NCBI GenBank assembly: GCA_964478045.1 | Contig: CAYZHO010000002.1 | Coordinates: 1 to 63,346 of the forward strand | Source of the DNA: an uncultured Myxococcales bacterium | GTDB taxonomy: Bacteria > Desulfobacterota > Binatia > UBA1149 > SPBQ01 | Direction: 5' to 3' | DNA length: 63,346 nucleotides | Part shown: positions 3,495-42,837 of the stretch, one piece after another | How the letters are laid out: each line of letters opens with the position of its first letter | Numbering within the stretch: position 1 is the stretch's first letter | Program-made: the position numbers and the translations under genes | Notes under the pieces: model-generated | What the model was told of the DNA's origin: nothing | The model's database searches: none | What the model saw: only the letters and a program-made list of their open reading frames with translations

Positions 3495-3498
3495 GTGG

Positions 3499-6152: not shown

Positions 6153-6253
6153 GCGGTGGTGGCTCATAGCACAATGGCGGCCGGACCCGCGGTTAAGGGC
6201 GAACCGGCCGGCTCGTTGCAGGACGGTTCAGAACAGAGCGTCGGAGGCCAAAA

Positions 6254-14793: not shown

Positions 14794-14836
14794 GACCTAC
14801 TCCTTCCCCTAGTCTCCCGCCTTGGGCTCTCGGCCT

Positions 14837-17214: not shown

Positions 17215-17709
17215 ATGAACGTACTCGACCTTGACGAGATGCTTTCGGGAATCGTCCGTACGCTGGACGAACAAGTCGGGCCGCACGTAGCGGCCGGCCC
17301 CGCACGGGCCCAGCTGTACGCCTCTCTCGACCTGCTGAACAATCTCGCATCGAAACTCGAATGGAAGCGCGAACTCTTGCAGGCGGAGGGCGACGGCATC
17401 GCCGCCGCGCTACAGCAAGTCGCCGATGTCCTGTCGGGAACCCCCAGCCTTCCCCAACCGCTGGCTACGCTCTCGGAAGAAGCGCAGCGGCTTGCTTCGA
17501 GCCCCGACCGCACGGACGATCCGCTGGCCTGGTGCCGGCGTTGCAACGAGGTTCTCGAGCGCGCGATCGTTGCCCTCGACGAAGCAAACCTCGACGAACA
17601 GGCTGCGGCTAGTGCCCGAGCGGCAATCGAAGGCTACCTGGTCAATCAGACCATCCGGGATTCCATGTTCATCAAGCCAATGATGCTGAAGAAAATCTCG
17701 CAAGGATGA
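17215..17709 (+). CDS. Hypothetical helical protein (164 aa), co-oriented with the kinase
   Basis: Compact ORF 22 nt after the kinase stop. Codon usage is consistent with neighbouring genes. No motif recognised. Confidence 0.5.
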   Translation: MNVLDLDEMLSGIVRTLDEQVGPHVAAGPARAQLYASLDLLNNLASKLEWKRELLQAEGDGIAAALQQVADVLSGTPSLPQPLATLSEEAQRLASSPDRTDDPLAWCRRCNEVLERAIVALDEANLDEQAAASARAAIEGYLVNQTIRDSMFIKPMMLKKISQG

Positions 17710-17731: not shown

Positions 17732-18673
17732 ATGATCAGCGCCACCGACATGATCAGCCCGCAGGACGATCGCCGCCACGCACCAGGACCGGAGTCGCTG
17801 CCACTGTGGAGCGAAAGCTATTGGTTCCCCGTCTACGACCCCAAGACTCAGACGGGGGTGGTCACGCGCATCGGCATTTTGCCCAATCAAGGGCGGGCGA
17901 CCTTGTGGATGTTCATCTCTCACGAGGGGCGAATCGTCCACAACGCCACCGACTTGAACTGCCCGCTGCCCCAGGGAGACATCGACGAACTGCGGGTCGG
18001 CAACGTCACCTACCGCTGCCTCGAGCCGCTGCGCAAGTGGCGGCTCACTTACGACGGTGGCGACTACGGCATGGACCTTCTGTGGGAAGCGATATGCCCC
18101 GTCTACCAGTACCCGCCTCCGCCGGGGACGACCGTGGACCAGGCCGCGCGCCACATCGAGCAGTCGGGCCGGGTGCGCGGCACCGTCCGGGTCGCTGGCA
18201 AGGACGTTTCGGTCGACTGCTTCGGTCACCGCGACCATTCCTGGGGAGGCGAGCGAGACTGGTCGAAACTGGCGACCTGGACCTACATCTCGTGTGAGGT
18301 AGACGAGCGCCTCAGCTTCAACGCCGTACAAATCTGGTTTGGGCCGGAGACGAGTTTCAAAGTCGGATTCTTCTGGGACGGCCAAGACGTGATGGGTCTT
18401 TCGGACCTCGGGGCGACCATCCACACGAACGAAGATCGCACCGTGCAGCGCGGCGCCTCGCTGTGGCTGGTCAACGAGAAAGGACAGCGTTACGAGGTGC
18501 GCGGCGAAGTCATCGACGTCTGCCCTGTGCGGATCGGCCCCACGCAGGTAAACGACGCCATCACCAAGTTCCAGGTTGGCGACCGGGTCGGCTATGGGAT
18601 TATCGAGTACGGCTACCAGACCGACGCCGCCGGCAAGCCGGTCGGTGTCGAACCGGCACTAGGACTCGGCTGA
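17732..18673 (+). CDS. Hypothetical protein (313 aa), beta-rich, HRDHSWGGERDW motif
   Basis: ORF 22 nt after the previous gene. Motifs SESYWFPVYDP and GHRDHSWGGERDWS resemble uncharacterised families often adjacent to APH-like kinases. No confident family assignment. Confidence 0.5.
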   Translation: MISATDMISPQDDRRHAPGPESLPLWSESYWFPVYDPKTQTGVVTRIGILPNQGRATLWMFISHEGRIVHNATDLNCPLPQGDIDELRVGNVTYRCLEPLRKWRLTYDGGDYGMDLLWEAICPVYQYPPPPGTTVDQAARHIEQSGRVRGTVRVAGKDVSVDCFGHRDHSWGGERDWSKLATWTYISCEVDERLSFNAVQIWFGPETSFKVGFFWDGQDVMGLSDLGATIHTNEDRTVQRGASLWLVNEKGQRYEVRGEVIDVCPVRIGPTQVNDAITKFQVGDRVGYGIIEYGYQTDAAGKPVGVEPALGLG

Positions 18674-18704: not shown

Positions 18705-20048
18705 TCAGCCGCCGGCGCCCGCCGGTGCCTGTGCGGACTCGAGATCGTTGTACGCCGTGGCGGTAAAGAAGTCTCCCCGCTTCTTGCAGCCACGAACGGT
18801 TACGAGGAACTGGTGCGAATCCGCGGGAATCGTGCCCTCGAACAGCACGGTCATGCGCGTACCGTCGATCTTCTCCTTGACCGTGAGATCGCTGTCCTGC
18901 GGCTTCTCCTCCATTCCCGGTCCTCTGGACAGCAGGACCACCGGCTTTTCTCCTTTTTTCCACCGCCATACGTAGGCCGGCTCTCCCTTCGTCCCTAGGT
19001 CGAACGTGCGCTCGCGCTGGCCGAGCGCCCAGTAGACCTCCGCCTGGGGACACGTGTTCTCGCCGTCGTCCCAACTGATCAAGAGGCCGATCCGCTGGCC
19101 TTCCCGGACCGCCCGGACCGAAATCGGCTCGTAGTGCTGCATCCAGCCTCCGCGAATGGCCAAGCGATCGAGTTCAACGGGAGTGGCCGACTTCCAAACC
19201 GGTGCGCCGACGTCGTCCGCCAGCTTGCCCGCCACCACTGGAACCGCGCCTCGGCTGGCCTGCTTTACGTCGCGGCGCTCCTTGGCAAAGGACAGTACGT
19301 AGTGCGCGATCGCCCAGCGTTCCTCCGGGGTCATGACCTCTTTCCAAAACCCCGTCATCGGGGTGCCGTCGAGCCCGGTCAGAATGCGCATGTAGATGTC
19401 TTCCGGTTTGTTGCCCCCCTTGTAGACCCCCACCTCGAAACTGCGAGGGTGCAAGGGCTGCCCCCAGTTGTCGAGCATTTCTTCGGGCTTCTTTCCGTCG
19501 CCCTTGCCGGTTTTGCCGTGGCACTGATCACACCCGACTTTGACGTACAGCTCGGCACCCCGCTTGAGTTCCTCGGGGGTCACCGGCGGCTCGGGCGGCG
19601 CTTTTTCTCCCGGCGGGACTTCGTAAAGCTCGAACCAGCTTCCTTCTTCTCCTTCGGGCCCGCCGAGCGTCTTGATGTAGGCAACCACGTCACGAATCGC
19701 TTGCTCGCCGAGATGGCGGAACGACGGCATCCCCGTACCCGGCATGCCGTTGGTGACCGTCCGGATGAGGTCTTCGTCGGTCGGAAGCTCTCCGGTCTGG
19801 GTCGAGCGAATCTTGAAGAGCCCCGGCCGAAAATCACGCGGGCGCGGATCGAAGAGCGCCGCGCCGGGACCATCGCCCCAACCTTTCGAACCGTGGCAAA
19901 ACGCGCAGTGGTGCTCGTAAATCGCCGCCCCAGCTTTCGGATCGCCTACCTCGGCGCGCGCGGCCGCGGCAACGAGGACGCCGAGAATCAGCGCCGCAAA
20001 CGCGCCCGCTAGCAACGGATGACGTTTCGCCCCAACGTTCTTCGTCAT
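18705..20048 (-). CDS. Dihaem c-type cytochrome fused to a C-terminal EB_dh-like (EbdC-related) domain, secreted
   Basis: The ATG at 20048 (ATGA overlap with the chaperone stop) gives MTKNVGAKRHPLLAGAFAALILGVLVAAAARA. Two class-I-like haem sites (CAFCHG, CDQCHG). The C-terminal ~180 aa align by eye with the gamma subunit at 30425-31075 (VREGQRIGLLISWDDGENT versus CHDGSKLYIRLEWKDPTEN). Confidence 0.75.
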   Translation of the reverse strand: MTKNVGAKRHPLLAGAFAALILGVLVAAAARAEVGDPKAGAAIYEHHCAFCHGSKGWGDGPGAALFDPRPRDFRPGLFKIRSTQTGELPTDEDLIRTVTNGMPGTGMPSFRHLGEQAIRDVVAYIKTLGGPEGEEGSWFELYEVPPGEKAPPEPPVTPEELKRGAELYVKVGCDQCHGKTGKGDGKKPEEMLDNWGQPLHPRSFEVGVYKGGNKPEDIYMRILTGLDGTPMTGFWKEVMTPEERWAIAHYVLSFAKERRDVKQASRGAVPVVAGKLADDVGAPVWKSATPVELDRLAIRGGWMQHYEPISVRAVREGQRIGLLISWDDGENTCPQAEVYWALGQRERTFDLGTKGEPAYVWRWKKGEKPVVLLSRGPGMEEKPQDSDLTVKEKIDGTRMTVLFEGTIPADSHQFLVTVRGCKKRGDFFTATAYNDLESAQAPAGAGG

Positions 20049-20725
20049 TTCTTGACCGGTCCCTCCGTCGAGATGAGATAAGTCATATCGGCGCGGCAGT
20101 ACGTATCGGCGAGCTCGATCATCGCACGCCAAAAGGGATGGGCGTCGATCTTTGCGAGCTTCGCAACCGCCTTCGGCAACCACCGCGCCGGGTGCCGTGC
20201 GAGGAAGTCGCGCGCCGCTCGCCGCAGGGACCCCGGATCCTCCCCGTTGCGCAACGCTTCGACTTCTTTGAACGTGAGGAAATGCAGGAACTCCAATTCT
20301 GCCGTCAAGTGATCCGGCAGGTCGCGTTCCTTGGAAGAAATCGTAAGTCCAAAGTACCGGTAGAAGCGCAGGGCTTCCTCCATCACTCGCTGCCGGTCTC
20401 CACCCCAAACGCCGCCGTACAGAGGCACTGGAGGGCCACCCATGCCAACGTCGAACAGGCCGACGTAGGCCGACTGGAACTCGTCGTAGTCTTCGTCGAC
20501 CTTTTCGAGTTCGGGCCACAAGCGGTCGACCCCCTCTAGAGAATACGGAAGGTGAGCGATCACCGAGCGCGCGGCCGGGATCATCTCTCCCGACCGGGCG
20601 AACTCGTGGAAGTCCTGCCACGGAAAACTCAGCCACGAAGCCAGATACTGGTAGAGCGTGCTGCGCGCCGCCGCTGCCCGCTCGGGGCCTTCGCGAATCG
20701 AATCGATGGTTGCGATCTCGGTCAT
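20045..20725 (-). CDS. TorD/NarJ/EbdD-like redox-enzyme maturation chaperone
   Basis: 226 aa. Family-like pattern: YVGLFDVG..GPPVPLYGG, ALRFYRYFGL, LPDHLTAELEFLHFL. GAGGGAGAA RBS. Confidence 0.8.
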   Translation of the reverse strand: MTEIATIDSIREGPERAAAARSTLYQYLASWLSFPWQDFHEFARSGEMIPAARSVIAHLPYSLEGVDRLWPELEKVDEDYDEFQSAYVGLFDVGMGGPPVPLYGGVWGGDRQRVMEEALRFYRYFGLTISSKERDLPDHLTAELEFLHFLTFKEVEALRNGEDPGSLRRAARDFLARHPARWLPKAVAKLAKIDAHPFWRAMIELADTYCRADMTYLISTEGPVKK

Positions 20726-20745
20726 GTTCTCCCTCTTGTTCGACG

Positions 20746-23559
20746 TCAGGCGACGCGTTCGACTTCGACTTTCGTGTCGCGGTCCACTTGCCCGGGTTCG
20801 TAGTGCGCGTACGACCAGCCCAGGTGACCGTACTCTCCCGCCAGTTGCGTGACTTTGAGCGGCGCCGGCGCCAGGTGCTGGTGGCTGCGGCGTCCGGCGA
20901 ACTGGAACGGCTCCCAGGCGTGGTAGACGAGGACGAACCCCGCCGGCATCGTCGCCACCACCTTGGCTCGCGCCCTGACCTCGGTCAAGTCGTTATAGAT
21001 TCGGACTTCGTCATGATCCTCGATCCCCCGCCGCCGCGCGTCCTCCGTTCCGATCAGGACGACCGGCTCGCCGCGCTGCAGGCGCAACATCAAGCGGTGA
21101 TCGCGCCAGATCGCATGAATCGACCAGCGGGCGTGACCGCCCGATAGGGTGAGCGGATAAGGCCCTCCAGCGGCGGGAGGAGCTTTATACCGGGGCAGCG
21201 CTTCGTCGAGCTCGAGGAACCACCGGTGATCCACGTAAAACTGCTGGCGTCCCGTCAGCGTCGGATAGCGCCGGCGCTTCTCGGAAAACCACCGCATCGG
21301 GACAATCGGCTCGTCGGGAGAATAATCCGAGTAGATCCCTGCAGTCCCCCCCTGCTGTCCTAGGCTGCGGATGCGCTGGTGGCCGCGCTCGCGCAGTTCG
21401 GCCAAACTCGTTCCCCGCGACACGCTCGAAACCGACAGAATGAAATCGGCCAGTGCCTCTTCGTCGTCCGCACCGAAACGCCCACCATCGCTGAAGGCAG
21501 CGCCTATCTCATCGAGCCTGCGCGTCTCGCCCAAGTAGTCCCGGTACTCGCGCACGCCTTGCTCTTTCGCCTTGCGGGCAACTCGCTCGGCAAGCCGGTG
21601 GAAGATCCACCACTCGGGACGCGACTCGCCCTGCGGCTCGACCGCTCGATCCGCCAGCGTCACGTAGGGAATCATGCCCGGGATGTACTTGAACCCCACT
21701 CGCTCGTACCAGGCCGCCGCGGGCAAGACGATGTCGCTGGCCAAGGCGGTCTCGCTCATCCGAAAGTCGACCGTTACCACGGTCTCGATCTTCGGCCACA
21801 AGCGCTCGCGCAGGAGGTCGCCGCTACGCGAGTGGCGGAGCACGTTTCCAAATACGGCCAAAGCGAACTTTGGAGTGGGCGCGCGCTTTACCGGAAACCA
21901 CCCGCGGTCGAGAGCCTCGCGAACGTAGGCGTCGACCTCGCGCGGCATGGCCGGATCCCCAAACGCACGGCGCCCGCTGCGCTCGCCGAGCTCGCCGTGC
22001 ACGTAGTGCCACAAGCCCGAAGGTACGAAATAACGGGAGAAGTCGGCAATGTTTTCTTCCGGATCGCGAAAATAACTGCGCGTTGCCAAGAGCAACAGGT
22101 CGACCAGGCCGAGGTCGCGCTGCATGGCCAGCACGGCCAGTCCTTCCATCATCACAAAGGCGCCCGAGCGCCACCCGCCTCCGGTCCTGCCGATGTTGCC
22201 CGTGACCGAAGCCAGTAGAATCTGCGAGCGCTGGAGCAGATCCGAGTGGTAGAACTTGCACGATCCGTACTGGGACAAGATCAGGGCGCGCGGAGCCGAG
22301 GCGAACTCTCGGGCAAAACGCCGGATCGTCCCGGCCGACACTCCCGTAATGCGAGCTGCTCGCTCAGGCGTATATTCGGCATCGAGCCGCCGCCGCAGCC
22401 GGGCCATGACCGGCTCGACTTCGACCCGCCGGCCGTCGCGCAGTCGCACCTTCCAGCGGCCCTCGAGCGCGGGGCGCAACGACCCGAGGGCAAGGCTGTC
22501 CGAGCGCAGCCCGTGGCTGCCCGGAGCGGGCGCAACTCGGCCGCCCGCCTCGTCCCACAAGAAGAATACTTCTTCGCTGCCCCCGTCGACTAGATCAGCT
22601 TCGCGCAGGAATCGGTCGTTGTCGGCCCTGACGAGCAACGGAAGGTCGGTTTGCTCGCGCACGTAGTCGGCATCGTACAATCCCTCAGCCAGGATCACTT
22701 GCACCGCGGCCAACGCCAGGGCGGCATCGGTTCCCGGTCGCGGGTTGATCCAAAGGTCGGCGTGGATCGCCGAAGGGCTGTAGTCGGGCGCGATCGCAAC
22801 TACCCGCCCTCCGCGGTAGCGCAACTCAGTGAGAAAGTGCGCGTCTGGAATCCGCGTCACGACTGGATTGAACGCCCACAGAACGACGTAGTCCGAGCGA
22901 AACCAGTCGTCCGAGCTCCCGTCGGTGTGCGCCGTTCCGAGCGTAATCGTCCCCCCGAAGGCAACGTCCCCGATCATCGCCATCGAGTCGGTAATCGGCG
23001 CGCCGAGCATCTTGAAGAAACGCAACGGCGCCGCCGTATGAGGCCCGAAGTCCATCTCTGGCCCCAGTTCGGCAATCAGGCCGTCGCCCCCGGCCTCGCG
23101 AACGGCCTCGACGATAGCCTCCGCGCAGCGGTCGAGCGCTTCGTCCCAGGATATGCGCTTCCAGCGGCCCTCTCCGCGGCGGCCGATCCGCACGAGCGGA
23201 TACGTGATTCGCGTGGGCCCGATGAACAAGTCGCTCGCGCACGCGCCTTTTTGACAGCCGCGCGGATTGAAGTCCGGGCACTGCCCGCACCCGTCCCCGT
23301 ACGTGCCGGCCTGCTCTTCGCGCCATACGATTCCGTCGCGCACGTAGAGCTTCCACGCACACGCCGACACGCAGTTGGCGTTCGCGTGGGTGCCGTTGAC
23401 CACCCGGTCCCACCTCCACCGCTCGCGATACAAGTCGCGCCAATCTCCGTAGGACGGCGGGACCGAGACCATCGCACGCGGCCGCGCGAAGGCCAAGCGC
23501 GAAAAGACGAGACTCGCCACCCCAAGCGCACCCGCCTTGAGAAAGGTGCGCCGGTTCAT
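20746..23559 (-). CDS. Type II DMSO-reductase-family alpha subunit, EbdA/NarG-like, Tat signal (paralog A3)
   Basis: The listed ORF runs to 24246 through A4. The ATG at 23559 gives MNRRTFLKAGALGVASLV. Motif HANANCVSAC...NPRGC. Blocks EQTDLPLLVR, YPTLTGRQQFYVDH, GGHARWSIH. 937 aa. Confidence 0.88.
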   Translation of the reverse strand: MNRRTFLKAGALGVASLVFSRLAFARPRAMVSVPPSYGDWRDLYRERWRWDRVVNGTHANANCVSACAWKLYVRDGIVWREEQAGTYGDGCGQCPDFNPRGCQKGACASDLFIGPTRITYPLVRIGRRGEGRWKRISWDEALDRCAEAIVEAVREAGGDGLIAELGPEMDFGPHTAAPLRFFKMLGAPITDSMAMIGDVAFGGTITLGTAHTDGSSDDWFRSDYVVLWAFNPVVTRIPDAHFLTELRYRGGRVVAIAPDYSPSAIHADLWINPRPGTDAALALAAVQVILAEGLYDADYVREQTDLPLLVRADNDRFLREADLVDGGSEEVFFLWDEAGGRVAPAPGSHGLRSDSLALGSLRPALEGRWKVRLRDGRRVEVEPVMARLRRRLDAEYTPERAARITGVSAGTIRRFAREFASAPRALILSQYGSCKFYHSDLLQRSQILLASVTGNIGRTGGGWRSGAFVMMEGLAVLAMQRDLGLVDLLLLATRSYFRDPEENIADFSRYFVPSGLWHYVHGELGERSGRRAFGDPAMPREVDAYVREALDRGWFPVKRAPTPKFALAVFGNVLRHSRSGDLLRERLWPKIETVVTVDFRMSETALASDIVLPAAAWYERVGFKYIPGMIPYVTLADRAVEPQGESRPEWWIFHRLAERVARKAKEQGVREYRDYLGETRRLDEIGAAFSDGGRFGADDEEALADFILSVSSVSRGTSLAELRERGHQRIRSLGQQGGTAGIYSDYSPDEPIVPMRWFSEKRRRYPTLTGRQQFYVDHRWFLELDEALPRYKAPPAAGGPYPLTLSGGHARWSIHAIWRDHRLMLRLQRGEPVVLIGTEDARRRGIEDHDEVRIYNDLTEVRARAKVVATMPAGFVLVYHAWEPFQFAGRRSHQHLAPAPLKVTQLAGEYGHLGWSYAHYEPGQVDRDTKVEVERVA

Positions 23560-23573
23560 CGCCAGTCCCTCTC

Positions 23574-26429
23574 TCACACCGGCTCGACCTCGATCGCCGT
23601 ACCGCGTGGCGTGTGGCTCGGTGCCCCGTAGCTCACACGGTAATGGATGTGCCCGTAGCCTCCAGCGAGATGGAGGGGCTTCCAGGGAGAAGCGACCGGC
23701 TCCTGCTGGCCCTTGTGCCGGCGAAACTGGTGTGGCTCCCAGGCATGGTACATGATCACCTGCCCTGGCCGCACCGCTTCGCTCACTTTGGCGAGGCACT
23801 CGAATTCTCCGACGTCGTTGAACACGCGCACCCGCGCGTTGTCCTTGATTCCGCGGGCGCGTGCGTCGCGCGCGTTCATCCATAGCGCCGGCTCTCCGCG
23901 CTGCAAGCGCATCATCAGTTCGTGGTCTCGCCAAATCGCATGAATGGACCAGCGCGTGTGGCCGCCCGTCAGCCGGAGCGGATAGTTTCCGCCCGCAGCG
24001 GGCGGCTCTTTGTGGACCGGCAGGACCTCGCCGGCCTTCACGAACCACTCGTGGTCGATGTAGAACTGCTGGCGGCCGGTCAGCGTCGGCCACGCTTCTT
24101 TCTCGTCGACCTGCCAGGAGTTGGGGTACAGAGGCTCGGCCATGTTCGGATCGCTGCAGATCGCGTTCTCGACCGAGTACATCCCGTTCTTCTCGACCGG
24201 GATGACGCCGCGTTCGAGCGCTTGCTCCCAAGTCTGGCCGCCGCACACTTCGGACTTCTCGAAGATGTACCGCAGCGCTGTGTGCGTATCCTCCGGATCG
24301 AAGCGCCCGCCGTCGCTCCAGCGGTCGAACAGCGTTTTCAAATCGTAATCGCGGCCGTGGGCGTCCTTGACCACGGGGACCCCCCGGGCCCTAGCGCGCT
24401 CCTGGATCCTGCGCGCCAGGCTTCCAAAGATCCACCACTCGTCGCGGCACTCTCCAAGCGGTTCGACCGCCTTGGCCGCCAGTACAATGTAGGGAATGTA
24501 GCTCTGGCAGTACTTGATGCTGTCTTTCTCGTAGTAACCGGCCGCCGGCAGCAGCAGGTCGCTGTAGAGGCCGGTCGTGTTCATTCGGAAGTTGACGTTC
24601 ACAATGAGCTCAAACTTCGGCCACAAGCGCTCGAGCGCGATCTGAGGAGTAGGCCACCGGCGCAACGGGTTGGGCGCGCTGAAGAAGAATACCTTTGGGT
24701 CCTTGCCCGGGGCGGGATAGACAGGAACCAGGCGCTGCTCGAGAGCAATCTTCATCGCCTGCTGGTGATCGATGCCCGCCTGAGGATCGTTGTATTCCGG
24801 CTTGGAGACCACCTCGTCGTAGCCCCCGTGGACGTAGAGCCAGGGCATCAGCGGCGTGAAGAACTCCTCCTCGAATGTGCGCTTGGTAATCAGCTTTTCG
24901 ATCTCGCGTACCGGCGGCCGCCCGATGAACCGGAGCAGCCATTCTTGCCACCACTTGATCTCATAGTTGGCAGCCATCCGTTCGAAGCCGGTCACGCGCC
25001 ACCAGGCGCCGATTCGCAATCCTCCACCGGGCCGGCCCTGGTTGCCCGTCAGCGCCATGAGCAGCGCCAGCGCGCGGTGCATCAGGTCGCTGTGGTAGTG
25101 CTTGCACGCACCCCAGGAGGCGAAGATCATTGCCGCACCGGCTTGGCCAATGTCGCGAGCCATTCGCCGCACGACCGAAGGATGCACGCCGGTGACTGCC
25201 TCGGTTTGCTCGGGCCGATACGAGCCGTTGAGCTGGCGCCGCAGGATCTCGAAAACCGGCTCGACCTCGACCCGGGTCCCGCCAGCCAGCTCTACTTCGT
25301 AACTTCCTTCGAGCGCCGGTACGAGCTTGCCCAGCGCGAGCGTCGGTTTCTTCTTTCCTTGGCTTCCGGGTGCTTCGGCGAGGCGGCCACTGGCTTCGTC
25401 CCAAAAGTAAAAAACGTCGTCACGCCCGCCTCGCTTGAGGTCTTGGGCGCGCAGGAACCGCCCGTTGTCCTTGCGAACGAGCAGCGGCAGGTCGGTCTGC
25501 TCCCGCACGTACGGCCGGTCGATCAAACCTTCTTCGATCAACACCTGCGCCGTGCTCAACGCCAGAGCCGTGTCCGACTCGATGCGGGGATTTACCCAGA
25601 GGTCGGCGTGAACCGCGCTGGCGTTGTAGTCCGGCGCCACGACGATCACCTTGGCGCCACGATAGCGGGCCTCGGTGATGAAGTGCATTTCTGGAATGCG
25701 CGTGTAAACGGGGTTGCCGCTCCAGATCACGATGCAATCGGAGCGAAACCAGTCGTCGCTGGTGCCCTCGCAATTGAACATCCCCCACGTCTGCACGCAC
25801 CCCATCGGCATGTCGCCGACCCCGGCCCAGTCCTCGATGTGGGTGGCCCGCATCAGGTTCGCCAGCCGTAGTTCGCCGCCGGTGCCGGGCCCGAAGTCGA
25901 TGTTGGTGGTGCCCTGGTCGTAGATGACGGTCTCCGGCCCGTGTTTCACGGTGGCGTCGATGATCGCGTCGGCAAACGTATCGAGCGCTTCGTCCCAGGT
26001 GATGCGCTTCCACTTTCCCTCCCCGCGCTTACCCACTCGCTTGAGCGGGTAACGCAGCCTTGAAGGAGAGACCATCAGGCTGCTGTAACACGCACCTTTC
26101 TGGCATCCGCGCGGAAAGAAGTCGGGAGCGCCACCCCGCCCGCCGTGATCGTAAACCTGCGCCTGCTCCTCGCGCAGGGCGATACCGTCTTTGACGTAGA
26201 CGTGCCACGCGCAGGCGGAAATGCAGTTCGCCCTCGTGTGGGAACACCGGGCGACTTTGTCCCACGTCCACTTGGCGCGATAGACGTCCTTCCAATCCCC
26301 GTAGTTGGGCTGCGGCGCAGGCCCACCGGCCGCTTGGCGCGGGCGGGCAAATTCCAGCGCGTTGAGAGCCAGCACCGCAGCTACCGCCCCAGACGCCTTC
26401 AAGAACTCGCGTCGCGTGATCACCGGCAT
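23574..26429 (-). CDS. Type II DMSO-reductase-family alpha subunit, EbdA/NarG-like, Tat signal (paralog A4)
   Basis: The ATG at 26429 gives MPVITRREFLKASGAV. Motif HTRANCISAC...FPRGC. Blocks EQTDLPLLVR, WPTLTGRQQFYIDHEWF, GGHTRWSIH. 951 aa. Confidence 0.88.
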   Translation of the reverse strand: MPVITRREFLKASGAVAAVLALNALEFARPRQAAGGPAPQPNYGDWKDVYRAKWTWDKVARCSHTRANCISACAWHVYVKDGIALREEQAQVYDHGGRGGAPDFFPRGCQKGACYSSLMVSPSRLRYPLKRVGKRGEGKWKRITWDEALDTFADAIIDATVKHGPETVIYDQGTTNIDFGPGTGGELRLANLMRATHIEDWAGVGDMPMGCVQTWGMFNCEGTSDDWFRSDCIVIWSGNPVYTRIPEMHFITEARYRGAKVIVVAPDYNASAVHADLWVNPRIESDTALALSTAQVLIEEGLIDRPYVREQTDLPLLVRKDNGRFLRAQDLKRGGRDDVFYFWDEASGRLAEAPGSQGKKKPTLALGKLVPALEGSYEVELAGGTRVEVEPVFEILRRQLNGSYRPEQTEAVTGVHPSVVRRMARDIGQAGAAMIFASWGACKHYHSDLMHRALALLMALTGNQGRPGGGLRIGAWWRVTGFERMAANYEIKWWQEWLLRFIGRPPVREIEKLITKRTFEEEFFTPLMPWLYVHGGYDEVVSKPEYNDPQAGIDHQQAMKIALEQRLVPVYPAPGKDPKVFFFSAPNPLRRWPTPQIALERLWPKFELIVNVNFRMNTTGLYSDLLLPAAGYYEKDSIKYCQSYIPYIVLAAKAVEPLGECRDEWWIFGSLARRIQERARARGVPVVKDAHGRDYDLKTLFDRWSDGGRFDPEDTHTALRYIFEKSEVCGGQTWEQALERGVIPVEKNGMYSVENAICSDPNMAEPLYPNSWQVDEKEAWPTLTGRQQFYIDHEWFVKAGEVLPVHKEPPAAGGNYPLRLTGGHTRWSIHAIWRDHELMMRLQRGEPALWMNARDARARGIKDNARVRVFNDVGEFECLAKVSEAVRPGQVIMYHAWEPHQFRRHKGQQEPVASPWKPLHLAGGYGHIHYRVSYGAPSHTPRGTAIEVEPV

Positions 26430-26464
26430 CGTCTCGCTCCCTATTGTGCCTTCGCGCCGGCTTG

Positions 26465-29329: not shown

Positions 29330-29342
29330 GGCCGCACCCCGC

Positions 29343-30404
29343 TCAGGCGCTTCGGCCCCACTCGATCGTCGACGGATCCCTCTTCCAGGCGAACATGTCG
29401 AGCCAGCGCCGCGAAATCAGGATGTCCATCAGTTCGGACTTTCCACCCGCGCGGGTCTTGGCCATCTCGGCCTTGAGGACCGCTAGAGCCTCGTGGACCT
29501 TCGGGCCGAACAAGTACTCGAGATACTCGTTCGGAATCCGCGGCTGGCTCTCGTCGATCTCGCCGTTCTCGTCGAGCCGCGGCGGTGCCAGCGGCGGCAC
29601 ATAGTAGACGTTCGGCTCGGTACCGAACTCGGGATGGAGGGGAATCGCCACCTTCCATTTGTAGACGAGCTTGTAGATCGGCCCATCCTGGTCATCGAGG
29701 TAGCCAGCGAACCGCACCCGGCCGGGGCACATGCGGGCGCAAGCCGGGGCCACGTCCTGGTCCACTCGCACGAAGCAGAAGATGCACTTCTGCGCGACCT
29801 TGCGCGCGTGGTTGAAGTAAATCTTCTTGTACGGGCACGCCTCCATGCAGAAGCGGTAGCCCCGGCAGCGGTCTTCGTTGATCAGGACGATCCCGTCTTC
29901 CTTGCGCTTCTCGATCGCATGGCGCGGGCACGCGTCCAGGCACGCCGGGTGCGTGCAGTGGTTACAGATGCGCGGCAGGTAGAAGAAGTAGCTGTTCGGA
30001 TACTCGCCGCCGCCCTGGTCTTCGTCCCAGTTCGGACCCCACGTCGGGTTGCCCTCGGGCTTGAGATGCACCTTGTTGCCCTTGCCGCCGTAGAAGACTT
30101 CTTCGTAGTTGAACTTCCATGCTTCACCGAAGTCTTCTCGGGTCGGGAGCTTTCCGGGCCGCGGAATCCGGTCTTTGCCTTCGACCTTGAACCCGCCGCC
30201 CATCTTTTCATAGTCGCGCGGCGTACCCCGCCCGGGCTGCGTGTTCACCGTGGCCCACCACATGTACTCCATCCCTTCGTCGCGGGTCCACAGGCGCTTG
30301 CAGGCGATGGTGCACGTTTGACACCCCAGGCATTTGTTGAGGTCGAAGACCATCGCCACCTGGTGGGCAGGCCCCTGCTTTTCGCTCTTTCGCGTCCTAG
30401 GCAT
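29343..30404 (-). CDS. NarH/EbdB-like iron-sulfur (beta) subunit, four Cys clusters (B2)
   Basis: CLGCQTCTIAC, CNHCTHPACLDAC, CRGYRFCMEACP and CIFCFVRVDQDVAPACARMCP. 353 aa. GGAAGGAG RBS. Close paralog of B1. Confidence 0.92.
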   Translation of the reverse strand: MPRTRKSEKQGPAHQVAMVFDLNKCLGCQTCTIACKRLWTRDEGMEYMWWATVNTQPGRGTPRDYEKMGGGFKVEGKDRIPRPGKLPTREDFGEAWKFNYEEVFYGGKGNKVHLKPEGNPTWGPNWDEDQGGGEYPNSYFFYLPRICNHCTHPACLDACPRHAIEKRKEDGIVLINEDRCRGYRFCMEACPYKKIYFNHARKVAQKCIFCFVRVDQDVAPACARMCPGRVRFAGYLDDQDGPIYKLVYKWKVAIPLHPEFGTEPNVYYVPPLAPPRLDENGEIDESQPRIPNEYLEYLFGPKVHEALAVLKAEMAKTRAGGKSELMDILISRRWLDMFAWKRDPSTIEWGRSA

Positions 30405-30424
30405 GGCTTACTCCTTCCGGCGGA

Positions 30425-31075
30425 TCACTCCGCAAGCTGAAACTCGATCCAGTTCTCCGTAAAGCCCTTGTAGCCGGCCCTTTCGCCGTGGCTTCCTTCC
30501 CAAACCGCTACGCCGAACTTGGACGAGGCGCCCGGGGCCAGCCGCACGGACTTACCGCCCCCCGCACCGGCGAGGTCGCGCGCGAGCACGAGCAGCCATC
30601 GGTCGCCCTTGTGGACCGCCTTGGCTTCGACCGCCTCCCCGGTCGGCTCGGTGGTGCCGACTCCTTTCGCCCACACCGAGCGGCCCTCCTCGCTGTCCGC
30701 GCGCCACTGCCACCCGTTGACCCACTGCTGCTCGTTGCCCATCGTGTTGATCGGGGCATCCTTGCCAATCGGGAACAGCACCGCAGCGCCGTCCGGAAAC
30801 ACGTTGTTGTCGGTCGGCTCCCGGTTTTCCGTGGGGTCCTTCCACTCGAGGCGAATGTAGAGCTTGCTGCCGTCGTGGCACAGCCTCGCCTCGACCTGCT
30901 TGACGGCGTTGATCTCCTTCTTGTCCTTCCACGCCGTGCGCGTATATGGCGTCGGCTGGTTGCCGATCGGCGTGGGCTTGAGCTCGAGCGACAGCGGCTT
31001 CACGGCGCTCCATGCGGAGGACGTCGGGTCGAGGAGCTTGTCGTGAGCCGCGCTGACCTTCTTGACTACCAGCAT
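30425..31075 (-). CDS. EbdC-like (EB_dh family) haem b gamma subunit, no N-terminal signal peptide
   Basis: 216 aa, matching the size of type II DMSOR gamma subunits. Candidate Met (PINTMGN) and Lys (ERAGYKGFTENW) haem ligands. Strong GGGAGGG RBS 6-7 nt before the ATG. The upstream in-frame sequence is hydrophilic, so no hidden signal peptide exists. Confidence 0.78.
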   Translation of the reverse strand: MLVVKKVSAAHDKLLDPTSSAWSAVKPLSLELKPTPIGNQPTPYTRTAWKDKKEINAVKQVEARLCHDGSKLYIRLEWKDPTENREPTDNNVFPDGAAVLFPIGKDAPINTMGNEQQWVNGWQWRADSEEGRSVWAKGVGTTEPTGEAVEAKAVHKGDRWLLVLARDLAGAGGGKSVRLAPGASSKFGVAVWEGSHGERAGYKGFTENWIEFQLAE

Positions 31076-31698
31076 GTGAGACCCTCCCTGCTCGTTCTTA
31101 CCTTTTCGGTTCGTTGTCCCCCGGTCACTAACAGGCGCACTCGCACGAGCCGCGCCCGCAGGTTGCGCACTGTACGCCCGAGACTAGCCAGTACGTGCAG
31201 TGGAATCATCACGTACAGCGCATAGCTGAACACGTCGTGCAGCGTGTAGGACCAGTCGATCACCGGATCGGGGAGACCCCGCTGAAACCACAGCAGAAAC
31301 CCGGTTACCACGAAGACGGCGCCCGAAACGATCGTGAACCAGAGGTTGATCGCGTGGATGGCCAACTTCTCCAGCCGCCAACTGCGCAACTGGATCGTTT
31401 CCCATGCTTCGGCCGGCCCCAGCGCAAAGGCGAGCAGGGGCACGACGAGCATCGCCACTCCCGCCCACTCGTGCCACCACGCTACCGTTTGGCCGTAGCC
31501 GCCGATCAAGCGCGCTCGCCAATCCGGGTACTGAATCAGCAGCCCCGTCGCCACCAGCACGAACACGACCGTGGCGTACAGGAAGTGGAACCAAGGATAC
31601 GAGGCCCACGGTTCGAAAGCCCGGCTGGAGACCGGCTCAGCCGGGGCTTCGACCGGAGTCTCAAGGTCCTCGGCCAATGATGTCCGCTGCGCGTTCAC
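31066..31698 (-). CDS. Four-helix membrane dihaem cytochrome b (FdnI / Ni-Fe-hydrogenase cytochrome b-like)
   Basis: The GTG at 31698 forms a GTGA overlap with the A6 stop. Four hydrophobic helices each carry His (WFHFLY, WWHEWAG, AIHAINLW, TLHDV..IPLHVL). The 3' end overlaps the gamma gene start by 10 nt. Confidence 0.65.
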   Translation of the reverse strand: MNAQRTSLAEDLETPVEAPAEPVSSRAFEPWASYPWFHFLYATVVFVLVATGLLIQYPDWRARLIGGYGQTVAWWHEWAGVAMLVVPLLAFALGPAEAWETIQLRSWRLEKLAIHAINLWFTIVSGAVFVVTGFLLWFQRGLPDPVIDWSYTLHDVFSYALYVMIPLHVLASLGRTVRNLRARLVRVRLLVTGGQRTEKVRTSREGLTCW

Positions 31699-34600
31699 GC
31701 GACCTTCCTCATGCCCACGGCAACTGCTCGGTCGGCCTGCACCGGTTGCCAGTTCCACCGCCAGTAACGCAGGTGTCCGTAGCCGCCGGCAAAGTGGAGA
31801 TACTTGACCATCCCGGGAATTGCCGCGTCGTAACTACGCCAGTTCGGAAACTGGTACGGCTCCCACGCGTGGTAGATGACGACTTGACCTGGCCGCACAG
31901 AAGGTGCCGTGATGATGTGAACCTGGAACCGGTCGAAGTCGTTGTATACTTCGACCAGGTCCCCGTCCTTTGCCCCAATCCGCTCGGCGTCCTTCGGGTT
32001 GACGAACAGGCCCGGCCGTCCCCGGTGCGTGTACTGGATCAGCTTGTTGACCACCCAGATCGAGTGGATACTCCAGCGCAAGTGCCCGCTCGTCATGCGG
32101 AACGGGTAGTCGCCACCCATCTTCGGGTTCGGCTTGAAGACCGGCAGCTCCTCGCCCGCTTCCAGGAACCAGTCGTGGTCGATGTAGAACTGGGCCCGGC
32201 GCGAGTACGTCGGATAGGGCACCTTGTCCCGCACGTGCCATTGTAAAGCGACCACCGGCTTGTCCGGCTCGATGTCGCAGGAGGTGTTGAGCGAGACCGG
32301 ATCGTACGGGTCGAGCCCCGTCATCCGGTGAAAGCCCTTTTCTTTGTAGTCCTCGAGCGTCGCGCTCTGGTCATAGAGCCCGATCCTGCGCTGATCGTCG
32401 ATCCATACTTTGAGCGCTTCGAGGTAGCCCTCGCGATTGACCGGCAGCTTGCGCGTGAACAAATCGTGGGCGTCCTCGTAGGTGCGCTTGATGCCGAGCC
32501 GCCGTGCCATTCCCGGCAGCACCACCGAGACGGCCCGCTCGAACAGCGCCTTGCCCATGATTCGGTGCAGGGCTCGCATGTAGCCCGGCAGCAAGGCCAC
32601 CAGGTCCGACGTCATGCGCTCTTCCTGGCGGAAGCTGTCGATCTTGCGCTCGCGGGCCCGGTCGCGAATCTTTTCCGACAGCCGGCCGAAGATCTCCCAC
32701 TCGGTGATGCAGTCGCCGACCGGCTCGACCGCCTTGTCCGTAAACGTGTTGTAACTGACCGTAGGCGTGAAGAAGCGAAAATCCTCGCGTTCGTAGAACC
32801 AGGCCGGCGGCAGCACCACGTCCGCGTACAGGCAGGTCGTGCTCATGCGCGGGTCCACGCACACCACCAGCTTGAGCTTCGGCCACAAGTGCTTGAGCAG
32901 GCGATTGAGCCCGCCGCGCGTGCGGCGCAGGGTGCTGCCGGCGATTCCGATCAGGACCTGAGGCGGCTTGTCCGGACCTGGCCGCATCAGGCCTTCCCAC
33001 CAGCCTTTCTTCTTCGCTTCCTCGACGTACTCGTCGAAGGAGCGCTTCATCGTGGGGTCCCCCCACTCTTTCTTGTTCCACACCTCCCGGTAGCCGGCGT
33101 GGTGGTACCAGTAGAACGCCGGCGGGACCATGCTCGTCAGCCGCCCGATGATCCGCTCGGATTCGATCGCCGCTTGCTCGTCCGTCAGGGTCGGATCGCG
33201 CTGGCGCAACAGCTTGATGAAGTTCCAGTGATTCTTGGTGATCCGCTCGAACTCTTCATCCCCGTGCTTCTCGCGCGCCATGGAGATGTGGGAGGCGTGC
33301 CCCGACTCGTTCCAGCCGGCGCTCCCCGTGCCCGAACGGCCCCAGTTGCCGCTCAGGGCTAGAACCAGCGACTGCGCCCGCTCGATCAAATCCCCGTGAT
33401 AGTACTTGGCCGAGTTCCACCCGAGGATGATCATCGTCTTTTTGGTCGCGACCAGGCGGGCCAGTCGCCGAATCACGCCGGGTGCCGTTCCGCACAGTTT
33501 CGACGCCTTCTCCGGCGTGTAGTCACGCTCGATCCGCTCGCGCAGCAGCGAGAACACCGTTCGCACCTCGACCGTCTCGCCGTTGGCGAGCTTGACCTCG
33601 GCGCGCGCGTCGAGCTTGGGATCGATGCCCTGCCATCGCAGCGTATCGAGCGGCGCCCGCGCCGGTTTGCCCGTGCGCGCATCGAGCACGTAGAGCTGGT
33701 CTTCGCGAACGCCTTCGCCTTCGAGCTCGGGCCCGCGCAGGTACTTGCGCGTATCGGTGCGCACGAGCAGCGGCAGATCCGTCTGCTCCTTGACGAACTC
33801 CTCGTTGACCAGCCCTTCGGAGATCATCACATGCGCCATGCCCAGGGCCAGTGCCGCATCGGCGCCGAAGTCGACCGGCACGTACAAGTCCGCGTGCATC
33901 GTCGAGGGGCTTGCATCCGGCGCAATCGTGACCACCGTCGCGCCGCGGTAGCGGGCCTCGGAGATGAAATGGTACGAGGGAATCCGGGTGTAGATCGGGT
34001 TCTTGTGCCAGATGAGAATGACGTCCGCGTTGAACCAGTCGTCGACCGAGCTGGCCTGCTGGAACTTACCGAACGTGATGTACTGGCCGACGTTGAAGTC
34101 GTTGATCAGGCCGTCGACGTCCAAGGTCGTCATTCCCTGGGACATCGCAAACCGGCTAGCCGCCTCGGCCTGAAAGATGCCGATGTTGCCGGGTCCCATC
34201 TCCATGATGCACGACTCGGGCCCGACGTTTTGCTGCGCGTCGATGATCGCATCGGCGACCATCGTTAGGGCCTCGTCCCAGGTAGCCCGGCGCCATTTGC
34301 CCTGGCCGCGCTCGCCGACTCGGATGAGCGGATACTTGATCCGCTCCTTGGCGTACATCACGTTGCCGAAGCTCGCCCCTTTCTGGCAGCCGCGGGGATT
34401 CATGTCCGGCATTTCCGGATTGAGCTGCGGGTAGTGGCCGGTTTGTTCCTCGCGAATGACCATCCCGTCCTTAACGTAGACCGTCCACGAGCAATTGCCC
34501 GGGTAGCAGTCCACGCAGTGAGTGACCCGGTGCCTGCTGTCCCAGGTCCACTTTTCGGCCATCAGCTTCTGCCAGTTCTCATAGGGCTTGGGCGGCTCCA

Positions 34601-34730
34601 CGGCCGGTGCCGCTTCGGCCCGAAGGGGAGCCAGACGCGACAAGGTCAGACCGACCACGGTCACCGCCGAGGTCTTGAGGAACTCTCTGCGCGTAATGTT
34701 AAGGCCCGTCATCTCTCCCGGTCCTTTCAT
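31695..34730 (-). CDS. Type II DMSO-reductase-family alpha subunit, divergent paralog (A6), Tat signal
   Basis: MKGPGEMTGLNITRREFLKTSAV (alternative ATG at 34712). Motif HCVDC-x4-C-x34-C. Blocks EQTDLPLLVR, YPTYSRRAQFYIDHDWF, SGHLRWSIH. It is the longest paralog (1005-1011 aa), with extra internal segments. Confidence 0.88.
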   Translation of the reverse strand: MKGPGEMTGLNITRREFLKTSAVTVVGLTLSRLAPLRAEAAPAVEPPKPYENWQKLMAEKWTWDSRHRVTHCVDCYPGNCSWTVYVKDGMVIREEQTGHYPQLNPEMPDMNPRGCQKGASFGNVMYAKERIKYPLIRVGERGQGKWRRATWDEALTMVADAIIDAQQNVGPESCIMEMGPGNIGIFQAEAASRFAMSQGMTTLDVDGLINDFNVGQYITFGKFQQASSVDDWFNADVILIWHKNPIYTRIPSYHFISEARYRGATVVTIAPDASPSTMHADLYVPVDFGADAALALGMAHVMISEGLVNEEFVKEQTDLPLLVRTDTRKYLRGPELEGEGVREDQLYVLDARTGKPARAPLDTLRWQGIDPKLDARAEVKLANGETVEVRTVFSLLRERIERDYTPEKASKLCGTAPGVIRRLARLVATKKTMIILGWNSAKYYHGDLIERAQSLVLALSGNWGRSGTGSAGWNESGHASHISMAREKHGDEEFERITKNHWNFIKLLRQRDPTLTDEQAAIESERIIGRLTSMVPPAFYWYHHAGYREVWNKKEWGDPTMKRSFDEYVEEAKKKGWWEGLMRPGPDKPPQVLIGIAGSTLRRTRGGLNRLLKHLWPKLKLVVCVDPRMSTTCLYADVVLPPAWFYEREDFRFFTPTVSYNTFTDKAVEPVGDCITEWEIFGRLSEKIRDRARERKIDSFRQEERMTSDLVALLPGYMRALHRIMGKALFERAVSVVLPGMARRLGIKRTYEDAHDLFTRKLPVNREGYLEALKVWIDDQRRIGLYDQSATLEDYKEKGFHRMTGLDPYDPVSLNTSCDIEPDKPVVALQWHVRDKVPYPTYSRRAQFYIDHDWFLEAGEELPVFKPNPKMGGDYPFRMTSGHLRWSIHSIWVVNKLIQYTHRGRPGLFVNPKDAERIGAKDGDLVEVYNDFDRFQVHIITAPSVRPGQVVIYHAWEPYQFPNWRSYDAAIPGMVKYLHFAGGYGHLRYWRWNWQPVQADRAVAVGMRKVA

Positions 34731-35227
34731 CCGTACAGCTCGTCGATCGCGTCGCTGATGCGGCGTACCATGTCCCGGAACGACTCGATTTCCTCGGGGC
34801 GAAAACGCTCGAGCAGGCGGCGCAGCCTAGCGATCTGCATCTCCTGAACGTCGCGCACGACTCGCCAACCCTCTCTCGTCAAGTAAAGATGGAAGCTACG
34901 GCGGTCGCTTGGGTCGGGACGTTTCTCGACCCACCCGAGCGAGCACAGCCGGCCGAGCGCCGTGCACGCCGACGGCGTGGTGATCGCCAGGCGGCGCGCG
35001 GCCTCAACGACCGACAGGCCCGGGTTGATTGAGAGCATTTCGAGGAAACGCAGTTGGCTCGGCGTGGCGCCGTAGCGGGTGTCGCTTACGACGTCGGAGA
35101 CGAAGTGCTTGAAGATCGCCGTAAGCAGACCCCCCAGCTCGTGGACGATCGCTAGTTCGACCGGCCCCGGCGAGTGTTCTCCCGGCGCCACGGTGGCGGC
35201 GCCGGGTACGGCTGTCTGGCGCTGCAT
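34727..35227 (-). CDS. MarR-family transcriptional regulator
   Basis: Winged-helix pattern: TPSQLRFLEMLSINPGLSVVEAARRLAITTPSACTALGRLCSLGWVEKRPDPSDRRSFHLYLTREG. Its stop forms an ATGA overlap with the A6 start. Confidence 0.85.
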   Translation of the reverse strand: MQRQTAVPGAATVAPGEHSPGPVELAIVHELGGLLTAIFKHFVSDVVSDTRYGATPSQLRFLEMLSINPGLSVVEAARRLAITTPSACTALGRLCSLGWVEKRPDPSDRRSFHLYLTREGWRVVRDVQEMQIARLRRLLERFRPEEIESFRDMVRRISDAIDELYG

Positions 35228-35285
35228 CCTTTTCCTACCTCGGTTGCAGGCCTCCCCGGCTTCCCGTGTACGCGCCAGTCATTAG

Positions 35286-35367
35286 TGAGTCAAGCAAACT
35301 GTCTCAAAAAAGTTGCGCTGCACCGCAGCATCGCCGGCGGTAATGGCGGGCGGCCCGCCTTGACTCA
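35286..35367. promoter_or_regulatory. Perfect 9-nt inverted repeat TGAGTCAAG (35286-35294) / CTTGACTCA (35359-35367) in the marR / A7 divergent intergenic region
   Basis: Read directly from the sequence, with 64 nt between the arms. The second arm contains TTGACT (a -35-like hexamer). The adjacent palindrome GGCGGGC-G-GCCCGCC lies at 35345-35359. Confidence 0.3.
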
Positions 35368-42822: not shown

Positions 42823-42837
42823 CCCGCTAGCGTCCTT

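Follow-up and report, generated by a model that had tools for sequence, protein, structure and literature searches.

Why would a single gene cluster encode four large catalytic subunits and provide only one set of partner subunits for all of them? This question is raised by a stretch of 63,346 nucleotides from an uncultured Myxococcales bacterium (GenBank assembly GCA_964478045.1, contig CAYZHO010000002.1, positions 1 to 63,346), hereafter the window, in which ten consecutive genes, all identified by Pfam/NCBIfam models, run along the minus strand from 35227 to 18705. They encode a MarR-family regulator, four alpha subunits (A6, A5, A4, and A3), single beta and gamma subunits, a delta chaperone, and two cytochromes, and the unit belongs to the type II dimethyl sulfoxide (DMSO) reductase family of Nar/Ebd/Pcr/Ser-type alpha-beta-gamma-delta enzymes. 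To our knowledge, oxygen-independent hydroxylation of unactivated C–H bonds by molybdenum (Mo) enzymes has been documented in just a handful of cultured denitrifiers, and the natural electron acceptors of such hydroxylases have been undefined so far. The answer that we favor, with a probability of roughly 0.6, is that this is a MarR-controlled operon for periplasmic oxygen-independent C–H hydroxylases, in which four alphas share beta, gamma, and delta, with two cytochrome outlets and a kinase/lyase cascade. The targets, attacked without oxygen, would probably be side chains of the isoprenoid or sterol-like type.

Layout and conservation of the ten-gene unit

The first gene of the unit is marR (34727–35227), the product of which has a winged-helix MarR domain (PF12802 at 55 bits, with both PF12802 and PF01047 above cut-off). 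It is followed by the alpha gene A6 (31695–34730; 1011 aa, or 1005 aa when counted from Met7), a cytochrome b gene with a GTG start (31066–31698; 210 aa), an EbdC-type gamma gene (30425–31075; PF09459), the beta gene (29343–30404; TIGR03478), and three more alpha genes whose products carry twin-arginine translocation (TAT) signals, namely A5 (26465–29329; 954 aa, subfamily II), A4 (23574–26429; 951 aa, subfamily III), and A3 (20746–23559; 937 aa, also subfamily III). The unit is completed by the gene for a NarJ/EbdD-type chaperone, delta (20045–20725; TIGR03482, PF02613), and by a gene (18705–20048) encoding a 447-aa fusion of a dihaem cytochrome c with an EB_dh-fold domain. A first-pass annotation of this DNA had described ten minus-strand genes separated by spacers of 35 nt or less, and the coordinates bear this out, the successive junctions from marR to the cytochrome c fusion being -4, -4, -10, +20, +13, +35, +14, +20, and -4 nt. 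The overlaps that it listed are found as described for A6/cytochrome b (GTGA), cytochrome b/gamma (10 nt), and chaperone/cytochrome c (ATGA). The marR/A6 ATGA is present as well, and would be void if A6 started at Met7. Since 12 orthologues all have Met7, which is encoded by a second ATG at 34712, and since the A6 orthologue with 90% identity is six residues shorter than the annotated A6, translation may start at 34712, which would put 14 nt between the marR stop codon and A6. Shine–Dalgarno-like motifs, previously noted before beta, gamma, the chaperone, and A3, were found at these genes and also before A4 and cytochrome b, where the motif GAGGAAGG lies 4 nt upstream of the GTG start; the motif upstream of A5 is weak.

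A consensus scan, which covered promoters of sigma-70 type only, detected no such promoter on the minus strand, and there were no terminator-like hairpins in the spacers between the ten genes. Minus-strand hairpins lie inside coding sequence or past the last gene, and their number (19, compared with 13.7 ± 3.9 in shuffled sequence) is not above expectation; the end of the unit is 31 nt away from a convergent gene. An Rfam scan of the window returned neither a molybdenum-cofactor riboswitch nor any other Rfam element. Upstream of marR, in the spacer that separates it from the divergent seventh alpha gene A7 (35455–38289, plus strand), lies a candidate promoter/operator block on the minus strand (35268–35314; TTGACT, 17 nt, TACACG). 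This block of about 47 nt is nearly identical in the related locus L007 (A6 82% identical), where the remaining spacer is not alignable, and its -10 element (TACACG) is too weak to pass the consensus scan. Because the divergence of A7 and marR is also kept in L006 and L007, MarR may control transcription in both directions.

We infer from this layout that the ten genes are co-transcribed as a single MarR-controlled unit. The genes could instead form a co-directional cluster in which internal promoters, for example before A5 or the chaperone gene, express the isoenzymes separately according to substrate, which we regard as rather unlikely. The alphas of Sterolibacterium denitrificans do vary in abundance with the sterol supplied (PMC6016249), the largest spacer (35 nt) lies at the A5/A4 junction, the weakest ribosome-binding site is that of A5, and the scan was confined to the sigma-70 type. 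Against separate expression, spacers of at most 35 nt and four overlaps leave scant room for promoters, the spacers are devoid of promoter or terminator consensus, and the gene order is kept in four other genomes.

Co-transcription, which we prefer, is in line with what is seen in relatives. The order marR-A6-cytb-gamma-beta-A5-A4-A3, with A7 divergent, recurs in four other metagenomic genomes in which A6 is 72–90% identical to that of the window: in full in L006 (90%), L009 (74%), and L020 (73%), and without cytochrome b in L004 (72%). In L084 (contig of L020), the unit runs on, all on one strand, to the chaperone, the cytochrome c fusion, a kinase, a small protein, a lyase-like protein, and a further alpha. 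A marR gene is found upstream of the A6 orthologue in L004, L006, L007, L010, and L011, and orthologues of A5 (70–84% identical) occupy an unchanged position in L004, L006, L009, L020, and L084; those of A4 and A3 are 67–86% and 66–80% identical, respectively. An 8.5-kb contig of GCA_003694065.1 carries marR, A6, cytochrome b, gamma, and beta, together with parts of A7 and A5, at 99–100% identity, and the nearest species representatives are metagenome-assembled genomes (MAGs) labelled uncultured Myxococcales, Candidatus Binatia/Binatota, or Deltaproteobacteria. Ratios of nonsynonymous to synonymous substitution (dN/dS) relative to L006 range from 0.04 to 0.19 for marR, A6, cytochrome b, gamma, beta, A5, and A4, which indicates purifying selection (0.04 for beta, which is 93% identical in L006, 0.08 for A5, and 0.07 for A4), these values being approximate because dS is near saturation. 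Pseudogene status of the genes in the unit was ruled out by intact open reading frames and motifs and by these ratios. The inventory originally proposed for the locus, i.e., four catalytic subunits with an iron-sulfur (FeS) beta, a haem-b gamma, a membrane cytochrome b, a dihaem cytochrome c, a chaperone, and a MarR regulator, is thus present in intact form, in an operon-like arrangement that is kept across genomes.

Catalytic subunits and their origin

All seven alphas of the window (A3–A6 and likewise A1, A2, and A7) match PF00384 and PF01568, and all seven display the twin-arginine motif RRxFL and, at the N terminus, a His/Cys FS0 motif with NPRGCQKG after it. Their scores against TIGR03479, 891–959 bits, are slightly below the cut-off of 985. 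The best match of A6 in the PDB is EbdA (2ivf_A; E 1.7e-235, 42% identity), and in the alignment of the two, Asp211 of A6, which does not vary among 12 orthologues, falls on EbdA residue Asp223, which we take to be the Mo ligand. One Asp is invariant in the corresponding segment of A1–A5 and A7. A6, whose orthologue group is small (identities of 57–90%), has an insertion of 43 residues relative to EbdA (residues 703–745; window positions 32496–32624), which is conserved in orthologues and partly hydrophobic, and which could make contact with the membrane or with cytochrome b.

The phylogeny of these subunits bears on how they came to stand side by side. Neighbor-joining (NJ) trees were computed from Kimura distances (100 bootstraps). 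In addition to 35 full-length representatives, drawn from a library of 1.84 billion proteins, they included EbdA and PcrA, which were rebuilt from PDB alignments and of which PcrA is partial. Three groups were recovered: group I with EbdA, a Sterolibacterium sp. protein, the A6 clade, and a cloud of Chloroflexota sequences; group II with A1, A5, and A7; and group III with A2, A3, and A4. A1/A5/A7, A2/A3/A4, and the A6 clade each have 100% support in the tree of the locus, and the corresponding subfamilies have 99%, 80%, and 98% support in the larger tree. The alpha from a Sterolibacterium sp. MAG (P0389) takes a basal position in the EbdA/A6 clade, and it is on this one protein that the placement relative to steroid C25 dehydrogenase (S25DH) rests. 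Each alpha of the window falls in a separate 50%-identity cluster with orthologues elsewhere. Pairwise identities are 39–48% among the four alphas of the unit and 39–54% among all seven.

These relationships are difficult to reconcile with the idea, put forward in the first-pass annotation, that A5, A4, and A3 arose by serial duplication in situ from the alpha of a founder A6-cytb-gamma-beta enzyme, followed by neofunctionalization. A core of A6-cytb-gamma-beta(-chaperone) that is devoid of A5-A4-A3 does occur in relatives (L002/L052 and L013), as had been anticipated; L015, with a single A4-like gene between beta and the chaperone, could be an intermediate with one extra alpha, and A4 and A3 are adjacent members of one subfamily. 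Nevertheless, the founder scheme is very improbable on the remaining evidence, and for A5 and A6 it is contradicted. A5 pairs with A1/A7 and A4 with A2, neither with A6 nor with each other; the four proteins fall into three deep subfamilies; and each has its own orthologues at 66–86% identity, some of them at other positions in relatives, such as the A5 orthologue upstream of A6 in L002/L052 and the A4-like gene upstream of the core in L013. L005 has an orphan A6. The proposed check for gene conversion among the paralogues, in which we looked for long identical tracts, found none, DNA identity in conserved segments being 60–77%. Recent tandem duplication or gene conversion among A3–A5 was excluded by the 39–48% identity and the lack of long shared tracts. 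The A4/A3 pair alone could be a very old tandem, an origin opposed by the larger tree, where inclusion of sequences of the A2 type and of the P0362/P0366 type means that A3 and A4 no longer form a sister pair. Because of this low identity, the depth of the subfamilies, the orthologues elsewhere, and the lack of identical tracts, the operon is best read from its sequences as an old and conserved set of paralogues that diverged long ago and are under selection, rather than as a recent series of local duplications.

The excess of alphas is itself common. Among 30 same-strand clusters with beta and gamma, 23 have two to four alphas per beta and four have a single alpha, counts that are indicative only since the loci were picked by similarity to A6 and cut at 10 kb. 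Many of these clusters are from Chloroflexota and have the form alpha-alpha-gamma-beta-delta-alpha; other arrangements are gamma-beta-delta-cytc-alpha-alpha (L086) and MarR-cytc-alpha-FAD enzyme-alpha (L087). Several alphas per beta-gamma(-delta) is the norm in the environmental ethylbenzene dehydrogenase (EBDH)-like family. In the whole window there are seven alphas, two betas, one gamma, one delta, and one cytochrome b. The second beta (beta2), which is 72% identical to beta, belongs to a minus-strand beta2-A2-A1 cluster (9062–15904) in which A2 and A1 overlap by 4 nt. This cluster is without a gamma or chaperone gene of its own and presumably relies on the ten-gene unit for both subunits.

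Electron-transfer subunits

Beta is a four-cluster FeS protein (TIGR03478, 527 bits, compared with a cut-off of 481), and the chaperone, which is encoded directly 3' of beta in the core-only relatives, scores 163 bits against TIGR03482 (cut-off 152) and also matches PF02613. Gamma (PF09459, 100 bits, compared with 33) lacks a signal peptide, matches the EbdC model over its full length, and has conserved Met and Lys in the places of what we take to be the haem-b ligands of EbdC. The cytochrome b scores 41 bits against PF01292 (cut-off 30). Four hydrophobic helices can be read from its sequence, and 10 divergent orthologues all retain four His, two of them spaced 14 residues apart in the last helix, which we take to be the FdnI pattern. 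These features fit a dihaem membrane protein of the FdnI/HyaC type. Among the related loci compared, a cytochrome b gene between alpha and gamma is found solely in the A6 clade.

The last protein of the unit, the cytochrome c fusion, has a Sec-type signal and two cytochrome c domains, the two CXXCH motifs and two Met of which are invariant or nearly so in an alignment of 45 sequences. Its AlphaFold2 model has a predicted local distance difference test (pLDDT) score of 91; the N-terminal domain superposes on the dihaem cytochrome 6h5l_B with a TM-score of 0.90 (target-normalized), and the matches of the C-terminal domain are EbdC (2ivf_C; E 9e-10) and NxrC. Longer relatives of the fusion retain both the Met and the Lys ligand positions. 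In the subfamily represented in the window, Met is replaced by Leu, Val, or Pro, the segment with Lys is deleted, and two conserved Cys have been gained, so the gamma-like domain is probably a haem-free docking or structural module. The gene lies 3' of the chaperone gene in L084 and L086, and the subfamily is embedded in operons of this kind in L084, L086, and L087. In L088, from a Verrucomicrobia MAG, a full-length relative of the fusion takes the place expected for gamma beside alpha, beta, and chaperone genes.

In the mechanism that we propose, A6, A5, A4, and A3 would each carry a molybdenum bis(pyranopterin guanine dinucleotide) cofactor (Mo-bisPGD), an FS0 cluster, and a TAT signal, and each would assemble in the cytoplasm with copies of the sole beta, which has four FeS clusters, and of the sole gamma, which has haem b, aided by delta, before export as an alpha-beta-gamma unit. 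The result would be four isoenzymes that differ in their substrate pockets and are connected to a common electron wire. Electrons would flow from the substrate to Mo, then through FS0, FS1–4, and haem b to two acceptors encoded in the operon. The first would be the Sec-exported dihaem cytochrome c, with the gamma-like domain lacking haem b probably used for docking, and the second would be the FdnI-type dihaem cytochrome b, through which the A6 enzyme, and perhaps others, would be connected with the membrane or with the quinone pool. Elsewhere in the window (1076–9042, plus strand), multihaem c-type cytochromes (Paired_CXXCH, MtrC/MtrF-like) are encoded among NHL-repeat beta-propeller proteins and a thioredoxin-like/tetratricopeptide-repeat protein, and these cytochromes are possible further periplasmic or extracellular electron carriers.

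Sharing of beta, gamma, and delta is inferred from the precedent of S. denitrificans. In this bacterium alpha genes outnumber beta-gamma genes, S25DH1–3 consist of alpha1–3 on the same beta3-gamma3, and soluble active S25DH was obtained by co-production of alpha-beta-gamma with the SdhD chaperone (PMC6016249).

A putative hydroxylation cascade and its precedents

On the plus strand, between the ten-gene unit and the beta2-A2-A1 cluster, lie the genes for an aminoglycoside phosphotransferase (APH)-family kinase (16128–17192; PF01636, 354 aa as called in the public record), a 164-aa protein (17215–17709), and a DUF7065/DUF7064 lyase-like protein (17732–18673; Pfam). The kinase matches in the PDB 9fsg_A, an "aminoglycoside phosphotransferase-like protein" (E 2e-23), Rv3168 of Mycobacterium tuberculosis (3ats), and the kinase domain of ACAD11. 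For the lyase-like protein, remote homology to 25-phosphosteroid lyase (25-PSL) is indicated by a match to 9fzn_A, annotated "25-phosphosteroid lyase", with an E value of 3.8e-5 as a single sequence and 1.9e-7 as a three-sequence profile, the next match being at E 0.1; the protein also matches the NCBIfam Rv3169 family with a score under the cut-off. Rv3168 and Rv3169 are presumably neighbors, going by their locus numbers, and the kinase/lyase pair may be an old module. Family searches with the 164-aa protein gave no informative match. Its gene stands between the kinase and lyase-like genes in every trio, and the trio is kept in L084, L085, and L089, on the same strand as the operon in L084. 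Among the best 120 matches of the kinase there was no named Sterolibacterium protein, and a literature search on Binatota ethylbenzene dehydrogenase, DUF7064/7065/8350, or 25-PSL returned nothing beyond the 2021 and 2024 papers in the Journal of Biological Chemistry.

By analogy with Sterolibacterium, where a cascade of hydroxylation, phosphorylation, elimination, and allylic hydroxylation has been described (PMC8449060, PMC11061730), kinase and lyase homologues beside the operon point to a hydroxylate–phosphorylate–eliminate–hydroxylate sequence. The kinase, the small protein, the lyase-like protein, and A1, A2, and A7 would thus join the four isoenzymes in a cascade of the Sterolibacterium type, in which a tertiary carbon would be hydroxylated, the product phosphorylated, the phosphate eliminated to leave an alkene, and the alkene hydroxylated at the allylic position. 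Isoprenoid or sterol-like side chains would be the substrates.

Several observations weigh against this interpretation. None of the alphas reaches the NCBIfam equivalog score for EbdA, and the cut-offs of the EbdABCD equivalogs are missed for every subunit (571–819 of 2000 bits for the EbdA model, 462 of 740 for EbdB, 117 of 400 for EbdC, and 94 of 360 for EbdD). The alphas are only 34–42% identical to EbdA and 34–37% identical to the Sterolibacterium sp. alpha. The kinase match 9fsg would be the 25-hydroxysteroid kinase (25-HSK) only by name, length, and deposition number; the homology of the lyase is remote (E 1e-5 to 1e-7), and its single-sequence AlphaFold model, with a pLDDT of 35, is unusable. 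Cytochrome b is absent from the otherwise syntenic L004, and the haem b of EBDH presumably has a high potential, which would make electron transfer to quinone via cytochrome b unfavorable and leaves the role of this protein uncertain. Internal promoters that are not of the sigma-70 type may lie within the unit. Finally, A2, A3, and A4 are slightly nearer to PcrA (40–43% identity) than to EbdA (34–36%), and hydroxylase chemistry is therefore an extrapolation for A3 and A4.

The last point also speaks for the main rival, an operon of mixed function, in which only A6 would be a hydroxylase, A3 and A4, and perhaps A5, would be reductases of the Pcr/Clr/Ser/Ddh kind or other oxidoreductases, and beta-gamma would work in reverse, with the cytochromes b and c feeding electrons in. 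The PcrA-rooted tree places subfamily III outside the group formed by EbdA, the Sterolibacterium protein, A6, and A5, and an FdnI-type cytochrome b and c-type cytochromes are equally able to donate electrons. We nevertheless find this scenario distinctly unlikely. Genes of the A3/A4 type stay in the A6 operon, beside the kinase/lyase genes, in several genomes; the gaps in identity are small; the tree is an NJ tree with one partial outgroup; and the named members of subfamily III are all uncharacterized proteins from Binatia or "Deltaproteobacteria" MAGs.

Returning to a set of hydroxylases as the preferred interpretation, it can be extended to a more specific proposal, which is tentative. The locus could be a self-contained system of uncultured Binatia for the anaerobic activation of isoprenoid/sterol (possibly hopanoid) side chains that encodes in cis the physiological acceptors, sought for a long time, of EBDH/S25DH-type enzymes, namely a dihaem cytochrome c that docks through its haem-less gamma-like domain and an FdnI-type cytochrome b that would turn one isoenzyme into a membrane-bound hydroxylase:quinone oxidoreductase.

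The surroundings of the unit and of its relatives add several observations. In the window, genes for a family-21 glycosyltransferase, a YdjC-like protein, a B12-binding radical SAM enzyme, and a class-III aminotransferase are grouped on the minus strand (38402–45027). They resemble the hopanoid side-chain genes hpnI, hpnK, hpnJ, and hpnO, and their closeness to hydroxylases of the isoprenoid type may have a meaning or be a coincidence. In relatives, MMPL/Patched transporters adjoin kinase or alpha genes (L090, 3552–5912, with a match to a sterol-sensing domain; L084, 16658–19246), which hints at lipid, sterol, or hopanoid substrates. Related operons are flanked by pairs of thiolase-like and ChsH2-type OB-fold genes (L002, 17289–18889; L087, 4886–6501) and by acyl-CoA dehydrogenase or enoyl-CoA hydratase genes, which fits downstream beta-oxidation of the side chain. 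The remainder of the window includes a MacB-type ABC exporter with an outer-membrane factor (49876–54289) and, on the minus strand (56383–63234), a Tc/Rhs toxin-like protein of 2283 aa with SpvB, TcdB-middle, FG-GAP, and RHS repeats.

The locus is significant in several respects. It shows how an uncultured and widespread lineage packages several catalytic subunits, one electron wire, candidate acceptors, and a regulator in what appears to be one operon. The architecture of many alphas with one beta-gamma-delta is the usual one for environmental EBDH-like enzymes, already precedented in S. denitrificans and therefore no oddity; the features here that deserve further attention are the operon-encoded cytochrome b, the cytochrome c fusion with its gamma-like domain apparently lacking haem, and the linkage to kinase and lyase-like genes. 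If side-chain activation is the correct interpretation, oxygen-independent degradation of sterols and isoprenoids by such chemistry would be widespread well beyond denitrifying betaproteobacteria. The locus also offers a set of genomic markers for anaerobic isoprenoid/sterol turnover in sediments and soils. The genes could also be used for heterologous expression to produce regioselective hydroxylation biocatalysts, hydroxylation of this kind being used to make 25-OH-vitamin D3.

Comparison with known systems highlights both similarities and differences. The cytochrome c fusion shares its domain order and folds with dihaem c–EB_dh fusions, which are gammas of uncharacterized Nar/Nxr-like enzymes (Kuenenia NxrC, PDB 7B04), and with the Kuenenia Kustc0457/0458 dihaem cytochrome (6H5L chain B). 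However, the window subfamily is shorter (~430–450 aa), its haem-b ligand positions are gone, its Cys pair is new, and it accompanies a normal gamma instead of substituting for one. The cytochrome b resembles FdnI and hydrogenase cytochrome b (PF01292) in its four hydrophobic helices and four invariant His, but its partner is a soluble, EbdC-type haem-b gamma, and we know of no characterized type II DMSO reductase with such a pairing. With EbdABCD of Aromatoleum aromaticum (2IVF), the unit has in common the subunit types, the cofactor motifs, a gamma that can be aligned with EbdC over its whole length, and the Met/Lys positions. Unlike the window set, EBDH has one alpha per beta-gamma and neither a membrane cytochrome b nor an operon-encoded cytochrome c; the proteins of the window are below the equivalog thresholds, and A6 has its 43-aa insertion.

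The closest parallel is with S25DH1–4 and S26DH1–2 of S. denitrificans. [quoted passage not shown] The 25-HSK and 25-PSL of S. denitrificans may have counterparts here in the APH-type kinase and in the putative lyase, which would belong to the fold family of 25-PSL by remote sequence homology. S. denitrificans has no candidate for a lyase gene in the neighborhood of its 25-HSK gene (PMC8449060), whereas here the kinase and lyase-like genes adjoin each other and the putative hydroxylase genes. In the window the four alphas, beta, gamma, delta, cytochrome b, cytochrome c, and regulator would belong to one operon. While S. denitrificans is a betaproteobacterium, the host of this locus is from an uncultured Binatia-like lineage, and its alphas have diverged to the modest identity with the Sterolibacterium sp. 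alpha given above.

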